Shown: positions 14,286 through 50,898, counted from the first letter of the stretch. The stretch is DNA of 64,000 bases from Escherichia coli (GCF_048403405.1 NZ_CP183129.1); one strand, 5' to 3'. Made by a program: numbers and translations. The notes: generated by a model not told the origin, from the sequence alone.

Positions 14286-15242
14286 TCAATACCCCATATT
14301 TTTCTTTTTCTCTAACTCTTCTTTTGCGGTATCAGGCAGATAAAGGGTGGATTTGGTCAGTGTTAGCTTTTCAGGCATGGTGCCGTCTTTTTTGTATTTC
14401 TCCAGCGCGTCGAAAGCAGGACCTGCCATGTTCGGCGTCAGTTCAACACTGGCGTTCGCTTCGCCATCAATCATCGCTTTGTAGATATCCGGTACGCCAT
14501 CAATGGAACCCGTGAGGATATCTTTACCCGGCTTCAGGCCCGCTTCTTTAATTGCCTGAATTGCGCCAATCACCATGTCATCGTTATGGGCGTAAACCAT
14601 GCAGATGTTTTTGCCGTTGTTTTCTGCTTTGATAAAGCTCTCCATCACTTCTTTGCCTTTGCTGCGGGTGAAGTCACCTGACTGCGAGCGGATAATTTTG
14701 ATATTTGGCGCATTCTTAATGGCTTCGGCAAAGCCTTTCTTACGGTCAATGGCGACGCTGGCCCCAACGGTGCCCTGCAGCTCCACCACGTTGCATGGTT
14801 TGCCATTCACTTCTTTTACCAGCCAGTCACCAATCAACTTGCCTTCGAGGATGTTGTCGGCGGTGACAGTGGTCATATAGAGAGATTTGTCTTTCACATC
14901 GATGGAACGGTCAAGCAAGAAGACCGGGATTTCGGCATCTTTCGCCTCTTTTAATACCGGCTCCCAACCGGTCGCTACCACTGGAGCGATAAAGATCGCA
15001 TCCACCCCTTGCGCGACGAAGGAACGTACCGCTTTAATCTGGTTTTCCTGCTTTTGCTGACCATCGGCAATTTTCAACGTAATTCCGCGCTTTTCGGCTT
15101 CACTTTTCGCCACATTGGTTTCTGCGGCGCGCCAGCCGGATTCCGATCCGACCTGCGAAAATCCAACGGTTAATGGAGCGGCCAACGCCATAGACGACAT
15201 GGCTGCCGAGACTGCAGAGACTACAAGTAAGCGTTTCCACAT
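14286..15242 (-). CDS. ytfQ: periplasmic galactofuranose-binding protein
   Basis: 318 aa with signal peptide; periplasmic sugar-binding family. Confidence 0.93.
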   Translation of the reverse strand: MWKRLLVVSAVSAAMSSMALAAPLTVGFSQVGSESGWRAAETNVAKSEAEKRGITLKIADGQQKQENQIKAVRSFVAQGVDAIFIAPVVATGWEPVLKEAKDAEIPVFLLDRSIDVKDKSLYMTTVTADNILEGKLIGDWLVKEVNGKPCNVVELQGTVGASVAIDRKKGFAEAIKNAPNIKIIRSQSGDFTRSKGKEVMESFIKAENNGKNICMVYAHNDDMVIGAIQAIKEAGLKPGKDILTGSIDGVPDIYKAMIDGEANASVELTPNMAGPAFDALEKYKKDGTMPEKLTLTKSTLYLPDTAKEELEKKKNMGY

Positions 15243-39660: not shown

Positions 39661-40074
<414 letters not shown>

Positions 40075-40382
40075 TTATTCAGCCTCCTGTCTGGGTCAGC
40101 CGAATCCCGGGGAGGCAAGGAACGTGTTAAAGGTCGGCTGAAAAATGACGCGTTATAGTACTGACATACCCCGCTAAACTCAAGGCCAGCCGACAAATAA
40201 ATCTCATCTTTCACCAAATCGTACTAACACGCTGATTTGAAGTTCATCACACTTCATCATGGTGTTTTTTTGAACAACTGCATCAGAAATGGTCACCATC
40301 AACTTCTTTATCATTGATTAAAATTAAATCAGAAGATCATCACAGAGGAGAGCACACAAAGTCAGCCGTTGAGGAGGTATCT

Positions 40383-40658
40383 ATGTTCAGTCGTGTTTTA
40401 GCCCTTCTGGCTGTGCTTTTGCTAAGTGCAAATACATGGGCAGCCATTGAAATTAATAACCACCAGGCCAGAAATATGGACGATGTGCAAAGCTTAGGCG
40501 TGATTTATATCAACCATAACTTCGCCACTGAAAGTGAAGCACGTCAGGCATTAAATGAAGAGACAGATGCGCAGGGCGCAACGTACTACCATCCGATCCT
40601 GATACGGGAACCGGGAAGTAACGGCAATATGCACGCCAGCGCGGATATTTATCGCTAG
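40383..40658 (+). CDS. yjfY: DUF1471 (YdgH/BhsA/McbA-family) small secreted protein
   Basis: 91 aa from ATG 40383 with gaggagg SD; signal peptide; C-terminal ATYYHPI...ADIYR motif. Confidence 0.88.
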   Translation: MFSRVLALLAVLLLSANTWAAIEINNHQARNMDDVQSLGVIYINHNFATESEARQALNEETDAQGATYYHPILIREPGSNGNMHASADIYR

Positions 40659-40697
40659 CACCAGGTATAACCAACGAAACATTGCCATAGTTTGCTT

Positions 40698-40722
40698 TGC
40701 CCCCTTCGCAGGGGGCTTTTTT
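40698..40722 (+). terminator. rho-independent terminator of yjfY
   Basis: gccccc-ttcgca-gggggc followed by ttttttt. Confidence 0.8.
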
Positions 40723-40786
40723 TGAAAAACGGCTGCGGAATTAGACCAGTTATCTCCCGAAGAAGGAAATTTCCGCAGCGCGTGTT

Positions 40787-41473
40787 TTACTTCTGCCCGT
40801 AATAAGCGTTGGGACCGTGCTTACGCATGAAGTGTTTATTCATGAGGTAGCTGTCGATGTGATTCAATTGTGGGTTAATGCCGCGGGCAATCCACGCCAT
40901 TTTTGCCACTTCTTCCATCACCACCGCGTTATGCACCGCATCGTGAGCATCTTTCCCCCAGGCGAACGGCCCGTGCTGGTACACCACAATCCCCGGTGTA
41001 TGCAGAGGCTCGGCGTTGCCCAGCGTTTCGATAATCACTTTGCCGGTGTTCAGTTCGTACTCACCCTGCACCTCTTCTTCGCTTAATCCGCGCGTACACG
41101 GGATATCACCAAAGAAGTAGTCGGCGTGCGTAGTGCCTAACGCCGGGATCGCCAGCCCCGCCTGCGCCCATGCGGTAGCATGAGTGGAGTGGGTATGGAC
41201 AATGCCGCCAAGCGACGGATAACGACGGTAGAGTTCGAGATGCGTCGCGGTGTCGGAAGACGGGCGATATTCCCCTTCCACCACCTTGCCGCTCATATCA
41301 ACCACCACCATATCGGCCGCTTTCATGGTTTCGTAGGCAACGCCGCTGGGCTTGATCACCACCAGCCCGCGTTCGCGGTCAATGGCGCTGACGTTGCCCC
41401 AGGTAAAGGTCACCAGCCCGTAGCGCGGCAGATCCATGTTGGCTTCAAATACCTGCTGTTTTAGCTTTTGCAT
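40787..41473 (-). CDS. ulaF: L-ribulose-5-phosphate 4-epimerase
   Basis: 228 aa from [10 protein letters not shown]; class II aldolase/adducin family; start codon shares 1 nt with the ulaE stop. Confidence 0.95.
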
Positions 41474-42327
41474 TATGCCGCCTCCACCATGCCCGCTTTC
41501 GCCATGCGCGCTTTCACCCAATCACGCGCTTTCGCCACTTCTGCCGCCGGGTCTTCCGCCGTTTCGCTCCACATCTCAATCAGGTACGGCCCGCAATAGC
41601 CACTCTGTTTGAGCGTTTCGAAGCAACGTTCGAAATCCACCACACCTTCGCCAAACGGCACGTTTTTGAAGACGCCTGGTTTGGTGTCTTTCACATGCAC
41701 CGCGACGATATGCCCAATTCCGGCCTGCAATTCCATCTGCACGTCGTTGTCCCACGCCGACAGGTTGCCGATATCCGGGTAGAGCTGGAACCACGGGTTG
41801 TTGAGATAGTGCGCGTAACCCAACGCCTTACTGATGGAGTTCATCAACGGGTAATCCATGATCTCCATCGCCAGCGTCACCTGCGCGCGGCTTGCCATCT
41901 CAACGCTCTCTTTCAGGCCGTCACGGAAACGACGACGCGTTTCGTTATTGGCTTCCTGATAGTAAACGTCATAGCCCGCCAGTTGGATTACGCGAATGCC
42001 AACGTCCTGGGCGAACTGGATAGCTTTACGCATAATCTCCAGCCCCTGCGCCCGTACCGCGTCATCTTCGCTGCCCAGCGGGAAACGACGATGAGCAGAA
42101 AGGCACATGGACGGTACGCGCACGCCGGTTTCAACAATCGCATTCACCAGCGCCAGACGCTGCTCGCGGCTCCAGTCGAGGCGCGACAGGCGATCGTCTG
42201 TTTCATCTACCGACATCTCGACAAAATCGAAGCCTAACGTTTTTGCCAGTTGCAGCCGTTCCAGCCAGCACTCCCCGGCGGGAAGCGCTTTTTCATAGAT
42301 GCCAAGCGGGATTTGTTTGGACAACAT
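41473..42327 (-). CDS. ulaE: L-ribulose-5-phosphate 3-epimerase
   Basis: 284 aa; xylose isomerase-like TIM barrel. Confidence 0.95.
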
Positions 42328-42336
42328 ATCCGCTCC

Positions 42337-42987
42337 TTAGCCCCACAGTTCGGCAATGGAACGTTTGAACTGACGCGCAGCTTCAACCGGAGAAGCGGCA
42401 TCACGGATACTGCGACCAGCGATAAACACATGAATCGGAATGCCTTTGAACAGCGGCAGATCTTCCAGCGCCAGGCCACCGGTGACGGTCACTTTAAAGC
42501 CCATATCGGACAGACGTTTGATCGCGGTAATGTCAGCTTCGCCCCACGCCACGCCTGCGGCCTGCGCGTCACGGCTGCGGTGATAAACCACCTGCTGAAT
42601 ACCTGCGTCGCGCCACTGTTGCGCCTGTTCCCAGGTCCAGTAACCGGTCAGTTCGATCTGCACGTCGCCGTTAAACTCTTTTGCCACGTCCAGCGCACCT
42701 TTGGCGGTGTTGATATCCGCACAGCAAATCACGGTCACCCAGTCAGCGTTGGCTTCAAAGCACATACGAGAAAGGATTTTGCCCGCATCGGCAATTTTGG
42801 CGTCTGCCAGCACGATTTTGTGCGGGTAAAGCGCTTTCAGATCGCGAACCGCACGCACGCCTTCGCCCACGCACAGAATGGTACCCACTTCGATAATGTC
42901 GACTTCTTCGGCAATCAGGCGAGTGGTTTCATAGGCGCTATCCATAGTCTGGTTGTCCAGCGCGACCTGCAACATCGGTAATGACAT
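42337..42987 (-). CDS. ulaD: 3-keto-L-gulonate-6-phosphate decarboxylase
   Basis: 216 aa from [11 protein letters not shown]; OMP decarboxylase-like. Confidence 0.95.
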
Positions 42988-43000
42988 GTTCAATTCCTTC

Positions 43001-43465
43001 TTAAGCTGCCGCGTTGGTGCGGTCAATTAAATCCAGTACTTCCTGCTCGGTACGGCAGGCACGTAAACGGTCGAAATTCTCTTCATCTTCAAACAGATTG
43101 ACGATCTGCATGATGCCCACTTCCTGGTGAGTGTTGGCATCGACCGCCGCCATGGTGATGAGGATATCCACCGGATCGTTATCTTCGTGGTTGAACTCCA
43201 GCGGCTTTTTCAGCGTCACTAGCGCAAAACCGGTTTTCTTAACGCCCTCTTCCGGGCGACCGTGCGGCATTGCCAGGCCTGGTGCGAGCACAAAGTACGG
43301 ACCGTGCTGTTCAACCGCATCCAGAATCGCCTGGTAGTAACGCGGCTCGACAACATCCGCCGCTACCAGCAGGTCAACGCCGATTTTTACTGCGTCCTGC
43401 CATGTCTCAGCTTCAGCCTGCAGGCGGATGGATTTATTTTCCGCCAGCGAATCACGTAATTTCAT
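43001..43465 (-). CDS. ulaC: ascorbate-specific PTS EIIA component
   Basis: 154 aa. Confidence 0.95.
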
Positions 43466-43474
43466 GGCGCGTCC

Positions 43475-43780
43475 TTACTTCACATCCTGCGGGAAATGCG
43501 CTTTGATCACTTCCAGCAGTTTCGGGCCAAAGTCAGCAGGAGAGAGCATGTTGCGCACGCCAACCACGTATTTGTTGCCGGTCACGGTGATTTCGCCCGC
43601 AATGTGCGTAGAAGCGATGATGATATCCGCGCCGCTCAACTCGCTTTTGTATTCGCCAACCGCGCAGCTGTTTACCGTGTGGTCAATGTTTGATTGGGTT
43701 AAAAACTGGTCCACTTTCATCTTCATGATCATGGAACTGCCTTGTCCGTTGCCACACACAGCCAGAATACGTACGGTCAT
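43475..43780 (-). CDS. ulaB: ascorbate-specific PTS EIIB component
   Basis: 101 aa from [12 protein letters not shown]. Confidence 0.95.
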
Positions 43781-43795
43781 AATCAAAACTCCTTA

Positions 43796-45547
<1,752 letters not shown>

Positions 45548-46612
45548 ATGAGTAAAGTGAAAAGTATCACCCGTGAATCCTGGATCCTGAGCACTTTCCC
45601 GGAGTGGGGTAGCTGGCTGAATGAAGAAATTGAACAAGAGCAGGTCGCCCCTGGCACATTTGCGATGTGGTGGCTAGGCTGCACCGGGATCTGGCTGAAA
45701 TCAGAAGGTGGCACCAACGTTTGCGTTGATTTCTGGTGCGGCACTGGCAAACAAAGTCACGGTAACCCGTTAATGAAACAGGGTCACCAGATGCAGCGCA
45801 TGGCTGGCGTGAAAAAACTGCAGCCAAACCTGCGCACCACCCCGTTTGTTCTTGATCCGTTTGCGATTCGCCAGATCGACGCGGTACTGGCGACTCACGA
45901 TCACAACGATCATATCGACGTTAACGTCGCTGCTGCCGTGATGCAGAACTGTGCTGATGACGTACCGTTCATTGGACCGAAAACCTGCGTTGATTTGTGG
46001 ATTGGCTGGGGCGTACCGAAAGAGCGTTGCATCGTGGTCAAACCGGGCGATGTTGTAAAAGTGAAAGACATTGAAATTCATGCGCTTGACGCTTTCGACC
46101 GTACTGCACTGATCACCCTGCCTGCCGATCAAAAAGCGGCTGGCGTACTGCCAGATGGCATGGACGATCGCGCAGTAAACTACCTGTTCAAAACCCCTGG
46201 CGGTTCCCTGTATCACAGTGGCGATTCCCACTACTCTAACTATTATGCGAAGCACGGTAACGAACATCAGATCGATGTGGCGTTAGGATCGTACGGTGAG
46301 AACCCGCGCGGTATTACCGACAAAATGACCAGCGCCGATATGCTGCGTATGGGTGAAGCCCTGAATGCGAAAGTGGTTATCCCGTTCCACCACGACATCT
46401 GGTCAAACTTTCAGGCCGATCCGCAAGAAATCCGCGTGCTGTGGGAGATGAAAAAAGATCGTCTGAAGTATGGCTTCAAGCCGTTTATCTGGCAGGTGGG
46501 CGGCAAATTTACCTGGCCGTTGGATAAAGACAACTTCGAGTACCACTATCCGCGTGGTTTCGATGATTGCTTCACTATTGAACCGGATCTGCCGTTCAAG
46601 TCATTCCTGTAA
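45548..46612 (+). CDS. ulaG: L-ascorbate-6-phosphate lactonase (metallo-beta-lactamase fold)
   Basis: 354 aa from MSKVKSIT (ATG 45548). Confidence 0.95.
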
Positions 46613-46625
46613 TCTGTCGTTTATA

Positions 46626-46657
46626 CCGGATAGCGTGGAGTAGTTCGCGCTATCCGG
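46626..46657 (+). terminator. hairpin downstream of ulaG
   Basis: ccggatagcg (46626-46635) pairs with cgctatccgg (46648-46657), 12-nt loop, followed by cgtagtatttcc. Confidence 0.5.
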
Positions 46658-46719
46658 CGTAGTATTTCCTGGCTATTTCAAATATCATCTAAAAAAATCA
46701 AATTTTATCGGAATAGCTC

Positions 46720-47475
46720 ATGACTGAAGCACAAAGACATCAAATCCTCCTGGAAATGCTCGCACAATTGGGCTTTGTGACCGTTGAGAAAGTCGTTGAG
46801 CGTCTGGGAATTTCGCCTGCCACTGCGCGACGCGATATCAATAAACTTGACGAAAGCGGCAAACTGAAAAAAGTGCGCAATGGCGCAGAAGCTATTACCC
46901 AGCAGCGCCCACGCTGGACGCCGATGAATCTGCATCAGGCGCAGAATCACGATGAAAAAGTACGTATTGCTAAAGCGGCCTCGCAGCTGGTTAATCCGGG
47001 CGAAAGCGTAGTCATCAACTGCGGCTCCACCGCGTTTCTGCTTGGGCGGGAAATGTGTGGCAAGCCTGTGCAAATCATCACTAATTATCTACCGCTGGCA
47101 AATTACCTGATCGATCAGGAGCATGACAGCGTGATCATTATGGGCGGACAATACAACAAAAGTCAGTCCATCACTTTAAGCCCGCAAGGCAGCGAAAACA
47201 GTCTCTATGCCGGGCACTGGATGTTTACCAGCGGCAAAGGGCTGACAGCAGAAGGGTTGTATAAAACCGATATGCTGACGGCAATGGCAGAGCAGAAGAT
47301 GCTAAGCGTGGTAGGGAAACTGGTGGTACTGGTTGATAGCAGTAAGATTGGCGAACGCGCGGGAATGCTTTTTAGCCGTGCCGATCAAATCGATATGCTG
47401 ATCACCGGCAAAAATGCTAACCCGGAAATCCTGCAACAACTGGAAGCGCAAGGGGTCAGCATTCTGCGTGTTTAA
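46720..47475 (+). CDS. ulaR: DeoR-family repressor of the ula regulon
   Basis: 251 aa; N-terminal HTH, DeoR C-terminal sugar-phosphate domain. Confidence 0.95.
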
Positions 47476-48221
47476 AGATGCTGCCGGAAAAATGTCACGG
47501 CAGCATCTAACGCCTCAGGCGTAATGCGGTGACGCACGCCTGGCTGCCATGAACAGGTTAGCAGTTTATCCCGTCCCGTCTCGCTTAAGGCCTGCTGCAA
47601 ACGTAGTGATTCGTCGGCAGGCACGACGTCATCGTCAAGGCCATGCCACAGCAGTAGAGGTCTGTCACCAAGTTGTTCCAGGTGGTTTGTCGCTTCCCAC
47701 TCTGCCAGCGGCGCGACAATGTTATTGAATTCATTCTGCTGTGCTGCCGTTTCAGGTATCAGCGGTGGAAACAGTGAACGGGCGAGCGATGTAAAATAGC
47801 CCGATCCCATCATGCTGGCGGTACATTTCACCGTGGGGTGGCGAGCGGTAATTCCCAGTGCCGTCATCGCGCCCATCGACGCGCCACCGACTGCCAGACG
47901 GTCAGCAAGCAGCCAGTTTTCTTCGGCTATTGCCGCACGTAACGTAGTGAATTCCTGCATGCTTTGTAGCAAAATTTGCCAAAATTGATTTAACCGCCGC
48001 GCTGCGTCGCCCCTAAAACGGCTACCGTGATCGGGCGCATCCGGCATGATCACTCGCAAACCAGCCTGCGCCAGCGCAACGGCAAAATAGCTATACACCA
48101 GACTGGACGAAGTAAAGCCGTGATAAAAAATCGCGCACGGTAACGGGGTATCTTTTTGCCCGGCAGGATAAGCATGAAGAACGGGAATATCTGCCAGCTC
48201 GCGTGATTCTATTTCAATCAT
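47472..48221 (-). CDS. yjfP: esterase YjfP (alpha/beta hydrolase)
   Basis: 249 aa; GxSxG motif GGASMGA; stop codon overlaps the ulaR stop. Confidence 0.93.
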
Positions 48222-48402
48222 CTGTCTCTCCTTTTTGTCTGGTATGACATGAAGAAATCCTTAGCACAAGTTTCTGCTGGCGGTATTAGTTCATAATGTT
48301 GAGATGTGGGTTACGCTTTCGTCACGTTTTCATTCGAAAATCGCGTACCAGGTAACAATTCGGGAACATTCCCCCAAAGTTAAATTAATAAGGCACTACA
48401 CT

Positions 48403-48732
48403 ATGGTTAGCAGGAAACGTAATAGCGTTATTTACCGGTTTGCCAGTTTATTATTGGTGTTGATGTTAAGTGCCTGTAGCGCACTGCAAGGTACGCCACA
48501 GCCAGCACCGCCAGTAACGGACCATCCGCAAGAGATTCGCCGCGACCAGACGCAAGGGTTACAGCGAATAGGTAGCGTAAGCACGATGGTTCGGGGTTCT
48601 CCGGATGACGCATTAGCAGAAATCAGAGCGAAAGCTGTCGCTGCAAAAGTTGATTATTACGTTGTCGTCATGGTGGACGAAACCATCGTGACAGGACAGT
48701 GGTATTCACAAGCCATTTTGTACCGTAAATAA
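48403..48732 (+). CDS. bsmA: biofilm/stress lipoprotein BsmA (YjfO), DUF1471-like
   Basis: 109 aa from ATG 48403; lipobox LSAC; the ORF-track call is extended. Confidence 0.9.
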   Translation: MVSRKRNSVIYRFASLLLVLMLSACSALQGTPQPAPPVTDHPQEIRRDQTQGLQRIGSVSTMVRGSPDDALAEIRAKAVAAKVDYYVVVMVDETIVTGQWYSQAILYRK

Positions 48733-48880
48733 ATCAGACAACTTACATAGTCAGCTTTACATTGCTTTGCGTCCCTATGCGTTTACCTGTGCACAATAAA
48801 TTACCGGCTGGAAGCTCGGGCGTTTATTACCGCGATGGAATGCCCTGCAACATGTGGGGAAACGAAAAATGGAGCTGACG

Positions 48881-49156
48881 ATGAAACAATTACTTGCCTC
48901 ACCCTCGCTGCAATTAGTGACTTATCCTGCGAGCGCCACGGCACAGTCTGCAGAATTCGCCAGTGCTGACTGCGTGACAGGCCTGAATGAAATAGGTCAG
49001 ATCTCAGTTAGCAATATTTCAGGGGATCCGCAGGACGTGGAACGTATCGTGGCGTTAAAGGCCGATGAACAAGGTGCGTCATGGTACCGCATTATTACCA
49101 TGTACGAAGACCAGCAGCCTGATAACTGGCGCGTACAGGCGATACTGTATGCATGA
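48881..49156 (+). CDS. yjfN: DUF1471 small secreted protein YjfN
   Basis: 91 aa from ATG 48881 with ggag SD; signal peptide. Confidence 0.88.
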   Translation: MKQLLASPSLQLVTYPASATAQSAEFASADCVTGLNEIGQISVSNISGDPQDVERIVALKADEQGASWYRIITMYEDQQPDNWRVQAILYA

Positions 49157-49181
49157 GTATCATCTACAGCAAATGAACAAT

Positions 49182-49215
49182 GCCGGATGCGGCGCGAGCG
49201 CCTTGTCCGGCCTAT
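49182..49215. repeat. REP element
   Basis: gccggatgcggcgcgagcgccttgtccggcctat between the convergent yjfN and aidB. Confidence 0.85.
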
Positions 49216-49272
49216 AATTTTCACATATTTCATTGAGTTAATTGAAACCAGCGTTGCATCAGTCGTATACGC

Positions 49273-50898
49273 TTACACACACACTCCCCCCGTCGCCCGC
49301 AGCAATAAATCATTCTGGATCTGCTCTGACAACCGTACGCCGCCGCGCGTATCTAACATCACCTGACACCACGCCTGCGCCATTGGCGGAGAGGCATATT
49401 TCAACATTTGCGCACCGCAGCCCAGCAGGAATAGCTGATGAGTAATCTCTCGCCCCAGTTCTTCAGCAGGCTTACGCAGCTGCTGCTGTAAACGACGTAC
49501 CGCGCGATCAAAATAGCGATCCTGCCCTTTCACTTCCACAAATGCTTCCGACAATAAGTCGTATACACCCGCTTGCTTATTGAGCACGCGCAGTACATCC
49601 AGGCACATAATATTACCGGAACCTTCCCAAATACTGTTTACCGGTATCTCCCGGTAAAGCCGCGGCAGCTCGCTCTCCTCGCAATAACCAATGCCGCCCA
49701 GCACCTCCATCGCTTCGGCCACAAACGGCATACCTCGTTTGCAGATCACAAATTTCGCCGCAGGCGTAAATAAACGCGCCCACAGAGCTTCTTTGGCATC
49801 GGCACGCCGGTCCCACGCTCGCGCAAGACGAAACAGCAACGCCGTTTGCCCTTCAAGCTGAAGTGCCATGCGACTTAAGACATGACGCATAAGGGGCTGT
49901 TGGATCAATGGATTACCAAAAACATGGCGTTGATGTGCATGATAAATCGCTAGCGAAAATGCACGGCGCATCATGGCATGGCTACCCAGGGCGCAATCAA
50001 AACGCGTCATCCCACCCATTTTCAGGATCAGACGAATTCCTTCCCCTTCCTGCCCCAACAACCAGCCAATGGCATCCTGAAACTCCACTTCGCAGCTGGC
50101 GTTAGAGCGATTACCCAGCTTATCTTTCAGCCGCTCGAGGCGAATCGCGTTGCGTTGCCCGTCAGGCAAAAAGCGCGGCACAAAAAAGCAGGACAAACCG
50201 CCCGTAGTCTGCGCCAGCACCAGATGCGCATCGCTTTGCGGCACCGAGAAAAACCATTTATGCCCCACCAGCCGATAAGAGCCATCTTCCAGGCGCTCTG
50301 CGCGGGTGGTGTTGCTCATGACATCGGAACCGCCCTGCTTTTCCGTCATTCCCATGCCAATCAACAAACCGCGTTTTTGCCCACCTGGCAATAAGTGAGA
50401 ATCGTAGCGATCGCTCAACAGCGGCGTGGTCCAGTCCTGAAACGGCGCGGGTAACATCTGTAACAGCAATGGCATGGCGGCAAAGGTCATCGTTATCGGA
50501 CATAACGACCCTGCCTCAACCTGTGCGTGCAACATAAAACGCGCCGCGCGCGCCACAAATGCGCCGGAGCGAGCGTCTTCTTCCCAGGCAAGATTGTGCA
50601 CCCGATTGGTACATAGCGCCTGCATCAGCAGGTGCCAGGCGGGGTGAAAACGCACATCGTCCAGACGCCGCCCCTGGGCATCGTAGCGCAATAATTCAGG
50701 CGGATTCACATTCGCCAGCCGCCCCAGTTCAAGGGATTCAGCCGTCCCTAACTGCTGACCAATACTGGCTAGAAAATCGCTATCCCAGCCAGCACCTTCA
50801 CGCGTTACCGCTTCGCAGAGCGCGCCATCAGACAGGTATAAGTTGCTGTTATTTAATGGCATAGGTTGATTAAAAACGGTGTGAGTTTGCCAGTGCAC
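49273..50898 (-). CDS. aidB: adaptive-response protein AidB (acyl-CoA dehydrogenase family)
   Basis: 541 aa if the GTG at 50896-50898 is used (MVHWQT...); an in-frame ATG at 50913 would give 546 aa. Confidence 0.92.
   Translation of the reverse strand: MHWQTHTVFNQPMPLNNSNLYLSDGALCEAVTREGAGWDSDFLASIGQQLGTAESLELGRLANVNPPELLRYDAQGRRLDDVRFHPAWHLLMQALCTNRVHNLAWEEDARSGAFVARAARFMLHAQVEAGSLCPITMTFAAMPLLLQMLPAPFQDWTTPLLSDRYDSHLLPGGQKRGLLIGMGMTEKQGGSDVMSNTTRAERLEDGSYRLVGHKWFFSVPQSDAHLVLAQTTGGLSCFFVPRFLPDGQRNAIRLERLKDKLGNRSNASCEVEFQDAIGWLLGQEGEGIRLILKMGGMTRFDCALGSHAMMRRAFSLAIYHAHQRHVFGNPLIQQPLMRHVLSRMALQLEGQTALLFRLARAWDRRADAKEALWARLFTPAAKFVICKRGMPFVAEAMEVLGGIGYCEESELPRLYREIPVNSIWEGSGNIMCLDVLRVLNKQAGVYDLLSEAFVEVKGQDRYFDRAVRRLQQQLRKPAEELGREITHQLFLLGCGAQMLKYASPPMAQAWCQVMLDTRGGVRLSEQIQNDLLLRATGGVCV

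Follow-up and report, generated by a model that had tools for sequence, protein, structure and literature searches.

Three DUF1471 genes around the ula regulon of Escherichia coli: probable ancient paralogs in a conserved cluster

How did three genes for small secreted proteins of one family come to lie within 9 kb of each other, on either side of the ula (L-ascorbate) regulon of Escherichia coli? We examined yjfY, bsmA (yjfO) and yjfN, which lie between positions 40,383 and 49,156 of a 64,000-nucleotide stretch of the E. coli chromosome (GCF_048403405.1, NZ_CP183129.1; hereafter the window, with positions counted from its first letter). A reading of this stretch made from the sequence alone had placed the three proteins in the DUF1471 family and attributed their concentration to local duplication or to a stress-protein neighborhood; its coordinates and names for the three genes agree exactly with the RefSeq annotation. 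Our results suggest that yjfY, bsmA and yjfN are probably anciently diverged DUF1471 paralogs, with bsmA and yjfN as tandem duplicates, in an old conserved cluster that holds a variable ula block, and that the three copies have specialized and are transcribed separately.

Pfam matches, comparisons of profiles and predicted folds (see below) all bore out the membership of the three proteins in the YdgH/BhsA/McbA family. Against PF07338 (YdgH/BhsA/McbA-like, formerly DUF1471), which has a gathering score of 27 bits, YjfY scored 67.1 bits (E 1.4e-18; domain at residues 35-91, nt 40485-40655), BsmA 50.7 bits (E 1.8e-13; residues 53-108, nt 48559-48726) and YjfN 63.4 bits (E 2e-17; residues 35-90, nt 48983-49150). 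A six-frame scan of stop-to-stop open reading frames (ORFs) with hidden Markov models across the whole window found DUF1471 only in these three genes. The motifs that the sequence-only reading had picked out by eye correspond to the conserved core of the domain (x-I/L-G-x-I/V-S, GA-x-Y/W-Y and A-x-L/I-Y), except that BsmA is without the GA and has KV. We located ten DUF1471 paralogs in E. coli K-12, the other seven being rclB, yahO, ybiJ, mcbA, bhsA, ydgH and yhcN. For ten such genes placed at random on a 4.64-Mb chromosome, the probability that three lie within 8.5 kb is P = 1.2e-3, so the clustering exceeds chance.

Conserved gene order around a variable ula block

There is nothing unusual about the locus as a piece of E. 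coli chromosome: strain 4621 (NZ_CP103479.1) matches positions 40000-49500 with 100% identity, and of 5426 complete E. coli genomes, 5425 have the region. We scanned synteny with one genome per species, which gave 80 yjfY loci, all in Enterobacteriaceae genera apart from two mislabeled or unclassified records. Seventy-two of these loci span the region, and every one of the 72 has the order rplI-rpsR-priB-rpsF, yjfY, yjfP, bsmA, yjfN. This conserved synteny covers at least 15 genera, and aidB came next after yjfN wherever the fetched sequence extended far enough. The cluster of rpsF, yjfY, yjfP, bsmA, yjfN and aidB would predate the divergence of the sampled Enterobacteriaceae genera.

Of the 72 spanning loci, 55 carry the ula block, in each case between yjfY and yjfP, and 17 do not. 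Citrobacter, Enterobacter, Kluyvera, Buttiauxella, Cedecea and Kosakonia each include loci of both kinds. In loci without ula, the gap between yjfY and yjfP was 85-170 bp at four measured junctions and 1.1-1.4 kb in three other loci, and the three DUF1471 genes lie within ~2 kb. Because the order is conserved and the span is so short without ula, the earlier description of three genes flanking the ula regulon, though right as to position, is better put as a compact cluster of long standing that contains ula in some species and not in others. In this cluster, ula would be a ~6.7 kb block that some species have and others do not. The ula-less locus of Enterobacter vonholyi (L046, 10351-10402) retains ~54 bp of the ulaR 3' end beside yjfP as a deletion scar, and no ulaR remnant was found in the ula-less loci of Kluyvera and Buttiauxella.

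Several loci depart from these two states. Citrobacter amalonaticus AUH_CA_2023_1 carries ~1.35 kb in place of ula (L012, 10277-11631), with an ORF resembling membrane transporters of the major facilitator superfamily (MFS), so the site between yjfY and yjfP appears to accept different cargo. In Pseudocitrobacter faecalis (L044, 11018-16900), UlaFEDCBA and UlaG share 97-100% identity with their E. coli counterparts, whereas the flanking genes have diverged (yjfY 76%, yjfP 59%, bsmA 62% and yjfN 68%). With ula proteins this close and flanks this distant, the ula block of P. faecalis looks like a recent lateral acquisition or replacement from Escherichia. A deletion in Klebsiella pneumoniae ATCC 13883 (L076, ~14367-14769) removes ulaA, ulaG, ulaR, yjfP and bsmA, and fuses the ulaB region to a 5'-truncated yjfN. 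Finally, one record titled Chryseobacterium sp. 18061 (L033) has the Enterobacteriaceae arrangement rpsF-yjfY-ula-yjfP-bsmA-yjfN and ribosomal proteins that share 91-97% identity with their E. coli counterparts. It is near-identical to a Citrobacter locus of the same project (L036), and the record is probably mislabeled or contaminated.

Relationships among the three proteins

The sequence-only reading had proposed pairwise alignment and phylogeny as checks on the kinship of the three proteins, and both gave a divided answer. By BLASTP, BsmA and YjfN are significantly similar (E 2e-7, 29% identity over 87 residues), whereas YjfY had no significant similarity to BsmA (E 0.5) and no alignment to YjfN. 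The outcome that the sequence-only reading had named as refuting, a lack of significant similarity beyond the signal peptide, therefore arose by half, for YjfY. Because pairwise comparison failed for YjfY, profiles built from orthologs were needed. Profile-profile comparison connected BsmA with YjfN (E 1.8e-13; residues 46-107 against 28-90), YjfY with YjfN (E 2.4e-8; gapless, over residues 28-90 of both 91-residue proteins) and YjfY with BsmA (E 5.8e-6), with probabilities of 85-98% across the three pairs. Judged by these profiles, homology among YjfY, BsmA and YjfN is real but deep.

We built a neighbor-joining tree of 103 domains, comprising the E. coli copies, their orthologs from ten genera and representatives drawn from the best 150 matches of a search across the family, which yielded 573 clusters. 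The YjfY, BsmA and YjfN subfamilies were each monophyletic with 100% bootstrap support. BsmA and YjfN were sisters (58% bootstrap), and the mean distance between them (1.50) was the smallest for both. YjfN is also the best E. coli paralog of BsmA, and the best E. coli partner of YjfY is YhcN, followed by YdgH domain I. Distances in this tree are saturated, at 1.5-2.8 substitutions per site. Of the NCBIfam models, the BsmA equivalog NF011433 (cut-off 100 bits) recognized the BsmA of the window at 150.9 bits, and YjfN (51 bits) and YjfY (26.9 bits) fell below it. The nearest model for YjfY and YjfN is the YhcN equivalog NF033776 (cut-off 125 bits), but all three proteins score below it (YjfY 46.8, YjfN 51.8 and BsmA 24 bits), and YjfY and YjfN are thus not YhcN themselves.

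As a character that does not depend on alignment, we counted the residues from the Ala of the GA motif to the terminal Tyr, which we call hairpin length. It was 23 in every YjfY, BsmA and YjfN examined and 20 in every BhsA, McbA, YbiJ, YhcN and RclB; six of seven YahO proteins also had 20 and one had 21. Nearly all repeats of YdgH had a length of 22-24, and one had 27. The trio and ydgH therefore lie on one side of a clean split of the family by hairpin length, which does not in itself prove a clade of the trio. Were the long form ancestral, it would be uninformative on such a clade. The long-hairpin group was not recovered as a bipartition in the neighbor-joining tree (1% bootstrap), so that distances and the indel give conflicting signals.

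These data bear on whether all three genes arose by serial duplication in place from one local ancestor, in which case they would form a clade with YjfY as its fastest-diverged or oldest member. The clustering of three of ten paralogs, the short span where ula is absent, the identical hairpin spacing and the gapless profile alignment of YjfY with YjfN all favor such a history, and the family has other local groups in ybiJ and mcbA, 4 kb apart, and in the three repeats inside YdgH. However, a bipartition of YjfY, BsmA and YjfN received 1% bootstrap, and YjfY is closer to YhcN (distance 2.02) and YdgH-I (2.16) than to BsmA (2.38) or YjfN (2.55). Its pairwise BLASTP comparisons were not significant, and the unrelated, opposite-strand yjfP separates yjfY from bsmA in all 72 spanning loci. 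We regard serial duplication of the whole trio as a tentative possibility, on the doubtful side.

For bsmA and yjfN, which are adjacent and co-oriented with 148 bp between them, the earlier proposal of local duplication is plausible given the BLASTP similarity and the tree; for yjfY, the pairwise and tree results speak against it. The adjacency of yjfN and yjfO has already been cited as a sign of expansion by duplication (Eletsky et al. 2014, PMC4092069). Under our preferred reading of an old cluster of diverged paralogs, bsmA and yjfN would most likely derive from a tandem duplication, and yjfY may derive from a still older local duplication. Several results weigh against this reading. The best E. 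coli match of YjfN is YhcN, with BsmA second (42 against 25-32 bits by BLASTP and 90 against 79 by hhalign), and the sister relationship of BsmA and YjfN has a support of only 58%, from ~67 saturated columns. In addition, YjfY groups with YhcN and YdgH rather than with its neighbors, and ydgH, at another chromosomal site, has the long hairpin too.

Targeting, C-termini and transcription

After duplication, the copies would have specialized in targeting signal, C-terminal residue and promoter, a proposal that draws on sequence features and on published work. The sequence-only reading had given each protein an N-terminal signal peptide. YjfY and BsmA clearly have one, but E. coli YjfN has an atypically weak export signal. 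The signal peptide of YjfY is of the classical Sec type (MFSRVLALLAVLLLSANTWA, with cleavage before A), which predicts a Sec-exported, soluble periplasmic protein; its C-terminal residue is R. Its mature domain is 60-98% identical across the 80 Enterobacteriaceae loci and appears to be under strong constraint. YjfY is listed as uncharacterized (PMC4092069).

BsmA contains the lipobox L22-S-A-C25 (nt 48466-48477), followed by Ser at position +2. We searched for lipoboxes with the pattern [LVI][ASTVI][GAS]C and a residue other than Asp at +2 for outer-membrane sorting, which gave no matches in YjfY or YjfN. The LSAC motif reported for BsmA from the sequence alone is real, being kept in 67 of 70 BsmA orthologs; the residue after the Cys is S, T or Q, and never D. 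By the +2 rule, lipoproteins with a residue other than Asp after the lipobox Cys are sorted to the outer membrane. BsmA is thus predicted to be lipidated at Cys25 and, because its +2 residue is Ser, is probably tethered to the outer membrane, with the proline-rich residues 26-45 as the linker. An AlphaFold2 model of BsmA (predicted local distance difference test [pLDDT] 87) consists of a helix (residues 2-28), a linker without structure and a beta-alpha-beta-beta domain, and the protein ends in RK. BsmA/YjfO is described as affecting biofilm formation and tolerance of peroxide and acid in work by Weber et al. 2010, as cited in PMC4092069.

The 3' end of bsmA varies among relatives. In some Escherichia loci (L011, 18319-18600; also L008 and L009), an insertion of ~270 bp at the extreme 3' end turns the C-terminus from YRK to YSK; the counterpart site in the window is ~48711-48725. 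The insertion contains ...ATCCCCGGGAGCTTACATAATAAACGACTGGGTGAGCGA..., and it may resemble an enterobacterial repetitive intergenic consensus/intergenic repeat unit (ERIC/IRU) element.

Of the ten E. coli paralogs, YjfN, whose N-terminus reads MKQLLASPSLQLVTYPASATA, has the least hydrophobic signal core, with a best 9-residue Kyte-Doolittle mean of 1.19 compared with 2.0-3.4 in the others. In Salmonella and Citrobacter, the YjfN N-terminus is LALSSLLLSAGLVSTTA and the same measure is 2.13. Across the signal region of Escherichia YjfN (48890-48937, codons 4-19) there are dense point substitutions, with several Leu residues changed to Ser, Gln or Pro, in E. coli, E. albertii and other Escherichia. 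Compensating frameshifts were rejected as their source, since alignment to the DNA of Salmonella, Citrobacter and Enterobacter shows no indels. We also rejected the idea that this N-terminus is a decayed BsmA lipoprotein signal, which had been raised by the BLASTP alignment running into the region: the profile alignment covers the domain only, and the ortholog N-termini do not align with the BsmA lipobox. The AlphaFold2 model of YjfN predicts no N-terminal helix (pLDDT < 50 there). An A-x-A-like site is retained, the literature treats YjfN as periplasmic, and the E. coli N-terminus may yet function as a signal peptide.

Following the N-terminus, YjfN has a conserved AQSAEFASADCVTGLNEIG segment, and the protein ends in Y-A (Ala91). 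The C-terminal residue is A or V in 57 of 58 YjfN orthologs, compared with K/R in nearly all other members of the DUF1471 family. YjfN has been described as a "suicide activator" of the periplasmic protease DegP (Kim et al. 2018, J Bacteriol 200:e00519-17, as cited in PMC12096828 and bioRxiv 10.1101/2024.12.25.630354), which is reported to stimulate DegP proteolysis while being degraded in turn, and according to the two citing papers the hydrophobic C-terminal Ala lets it bind and activate DegP. The Ala of the window's YjfN would serve this function.

We then considered transcription. An intrinsic-terminator-like hairpin lies 3' of yjfY, and it is retained between yjfY and yjfP in ula-less genomes. 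Because this strong hairpin directly follows the gene, yjfY looks monocistronic. In the spacer between bsmA and yjfN, ~111-125 bp upstream of the yjfN ATG, is a CpxR-box-like tandem pentamer with one mismatch to GTAAA-N5-GTAAA. The pattern search gave nine matches in the window against 3.1 expected. Of the 72 loci, which represent many genera, 69 have a box at the equivalent site, and no conserved CpxR-like box was found upstream of yjfY or bsmA, which argues that the three genes are not co-transcribed. The gene yjfN would have its own promoter region. A scan for sigma-70 promoters found none near the three genes and was uninformative. The box fits published work, in which yjfN is reported to be regulated by CpxAR (PMC5428311) and is the only one of the three in the CpxR iModulon (PMC7657598). 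Against this, yjfN was not listed as a direct CpxR target by chromatin immunoprecipitation with exonuclease treatment (ChIP-exo) under ethanol stress (PMC7657598).

The trio could instead have been kept together as a co-regulated stress or biofilm module, its proximity reflecting function rather than historical accident. Consistent with this idea, the order of yjfY, yjfP, bsmA and yjfN is invariant across the 72 loci, all three products are envelope proteins, and yjfN and yjfY are among the genes up under multiple stresses in one meta-analysis (PMC9501238). Yet yjfY ends in its own strong terminator, convergent and opposite-strand genes intervene, and the CpxR-like box and iModulon membership belong to yjfN alone, so that the three genes form neither an operon nor a recognizable shared regulon. 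Moreover, the cluster tolerates 6.7 kb of ula or an MFS-like ORF inside it, and the whole chromosomal region is syntenic anyway. We consider a co-regulated module unlikely, and the "stress-protein neighborhood" of the earlier proposal, in the sense of co-regulation, is not supported. Taken together, the results favor three genes that would be transcribed separately, within an old cluster of diverged paralogs.

A wider proposal joins several of these threads. The trio and the three YdgH repeats would form one long-hairpin lineage, and the invariant block yjfY-yjfP-bsmA-yjfN would be an envelope quality-control module of Enterobacteriaceae in which YjfY and BsmA, like YjfN, are adaptors for periplasmic proteases or outer-membrane proteins. 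The signal change in Escherichia YjfN would then alter the amount exported. Multicopy yjfN is reported to suppress a strain lacking cytoplasmic prolyl isomerases (PMC7461557), and if the proposal were true, altered YjfN export could relate to that suppression. We hold this combination to be quite improbable.

Neighboring features, fold and known systems

The features of the locus are collected in Table 1. The genes ulaR (+) and yjfP (-) are convergent and their stop codons overlap by 4 bp at 47472-47475, which is also the right-hand edge of the variable ula block. Directly after ulaG, a long hairpin with a 14-bp stem (46626-46657, +) is the strongest terminator-like structure of the region. 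Between 39000 and 50000, the sole Rfam match was an RpsF leader (RF02893, 110 bits) at 40054-40138 (-), upstream of rpsF in the divergent spacer that it shares with yjfY.

Table 1. Positions of genes and sequence elements at the yjfY-yjfN locus, counted from the first letter of the window.
Feature	Position	Strand	Details
yjfY	40383-40658	+	91 residues; RefSeq
Intrinsic-terminator-like hairpin 3' of yjfY	40699-40724	+	GCCCCCTTCGCAGGGGGC then TTTTTTT; terminator scan
ula (L-ascorbate) regulon overall	40787-47475	mixed	RefSeq; unrelated to DUF1471
ulaFEDCBA	40787-45193	-	RefSeq
ulaG	45548-46612	+	RefSeq
ulaR	46720-47475	+	RefSeq
yjfP	47472-48221	-	Esterase, non-DUF1471; RefSeq
bsmA (yjfO)	48403-48732	+	109 residues; RefSeq
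CpxR-box-like tandem pentamer, bsmA-yjfN spacer	48756-48770	-	GCAAAGCAATGTAAA; pattern search
yjfN	48881-49156	+	91 residues; RefSeq "DUF1471 family protease activator YjfN"
aidB	next to yjfN	-	RefSeq

The AlphaFold2 models of BsmA and YjfN (domain pLDDT ~88 for the latter) share a strand-helix-strand-strand topology. Among PDB entries, both match 2m2j and 4evu with TM-scores on the target of 0.73-0.78, and 2jna and 2ma8 with 0.50-0.67. The matches of the BsmA model are, in order, YdgH-I (2m2j), SrfN, YdgH-III and then RcsF; those of the YjfN model are led by 2m2j, 2jna and 4evu. For YjfY, we compared sequence with solved structures, and the closest was SrfN (2jna, E 6.9e-6). That the three proteins are not homologous and resemble each other only superficially, in short motifs and signal peptides, has the non-significant BLASTP results of YjfY in its favor, but it is refuted by the Pfam E-values of 1e-13 to 1e-18, the profile-profile probabilities, the predicted folds of BsmA and YjfN, which best match solved DUF1471 structures, and the match of YjfY to SrfN, and we give it virtually no credence.

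The genes, the family, its fold, the ten paralogs and the adjacency of yjfN and yjfO are already published, and all three genes are named in RefSeq. What we add are the hairpin classes of 20 and of 22-24 residues, the second of which holds the trio and YdgH, the conservation of yjfY-yjfP-bsmA-yjfN, and the variability of ula. The gain is modest and amounts to evolutionary bookkeeping: an old cluster with a variable ula block, and a length character that splits the family. The trio also shows how duplicated small envelope proteins could diverge through targeting signal, C-terminal residue and promoter. YjfY, uncharacterized and with a very strongly conserved mature domain, is a reasonable target for experiments.

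Compared with the published, Enterobacteriaceae-specific DUF1471 family, with its approximately twelve subfamilies and ten E. coli paralogs (Eletsky et al. 2014, PMC4092069), the trio is no different in kind. All three score over the family threshold, are ~90-110 residues long, have one alpha+beta domain and belong to Enterobacteriaceae; they would also be exported, in E. coli YjfN by an atypically weak signal. The yjfN of the window is the same gene as that of the DegP suicide activator, with its hydrophobic C-terminal Ala; judged by their C-termini (R in YjfY and RK in BsmA), the other two should not activate DegP in the manner of YjfN. The bsmA of the window matches the equivalog of the BsmA/YjfO biofilm and peroxide lipoprotein and, unlike the other nine E. 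coli paralogs, encodes a lipobox and a proline-rich tether. BsmA also resembles RcsF, an outer-membrane lipoprotein that senses stress: structures of RcsF (2l8y and 2y1b) are matches 5-7 for the BsmA and YjfN models, and both RcsF and BsmA are lipoproteins with a flexible N-terminal linker. The two differ in that no relation is detected at the sequence level (RcsF model E 0.095) and the disulfides of RcsF are absent; the analysis gave no sign of OMP threading or of Rcs signaling. The closest parallel to the cluster itself is the ybiJ/mcbA pair of E. coli K-12 (837665-837925 and 841796-842056), two DUF1471 genes ~4 kb apart on one strand and separated by the unrelated ybiI, ybiX and fiu, an arrangement of the same kind as the yjf cluster. 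YbiJ, McbA and BhsA are, however, mutually much closer than the yjf trio (hhalign scores of 105-138 compared with 29-84).

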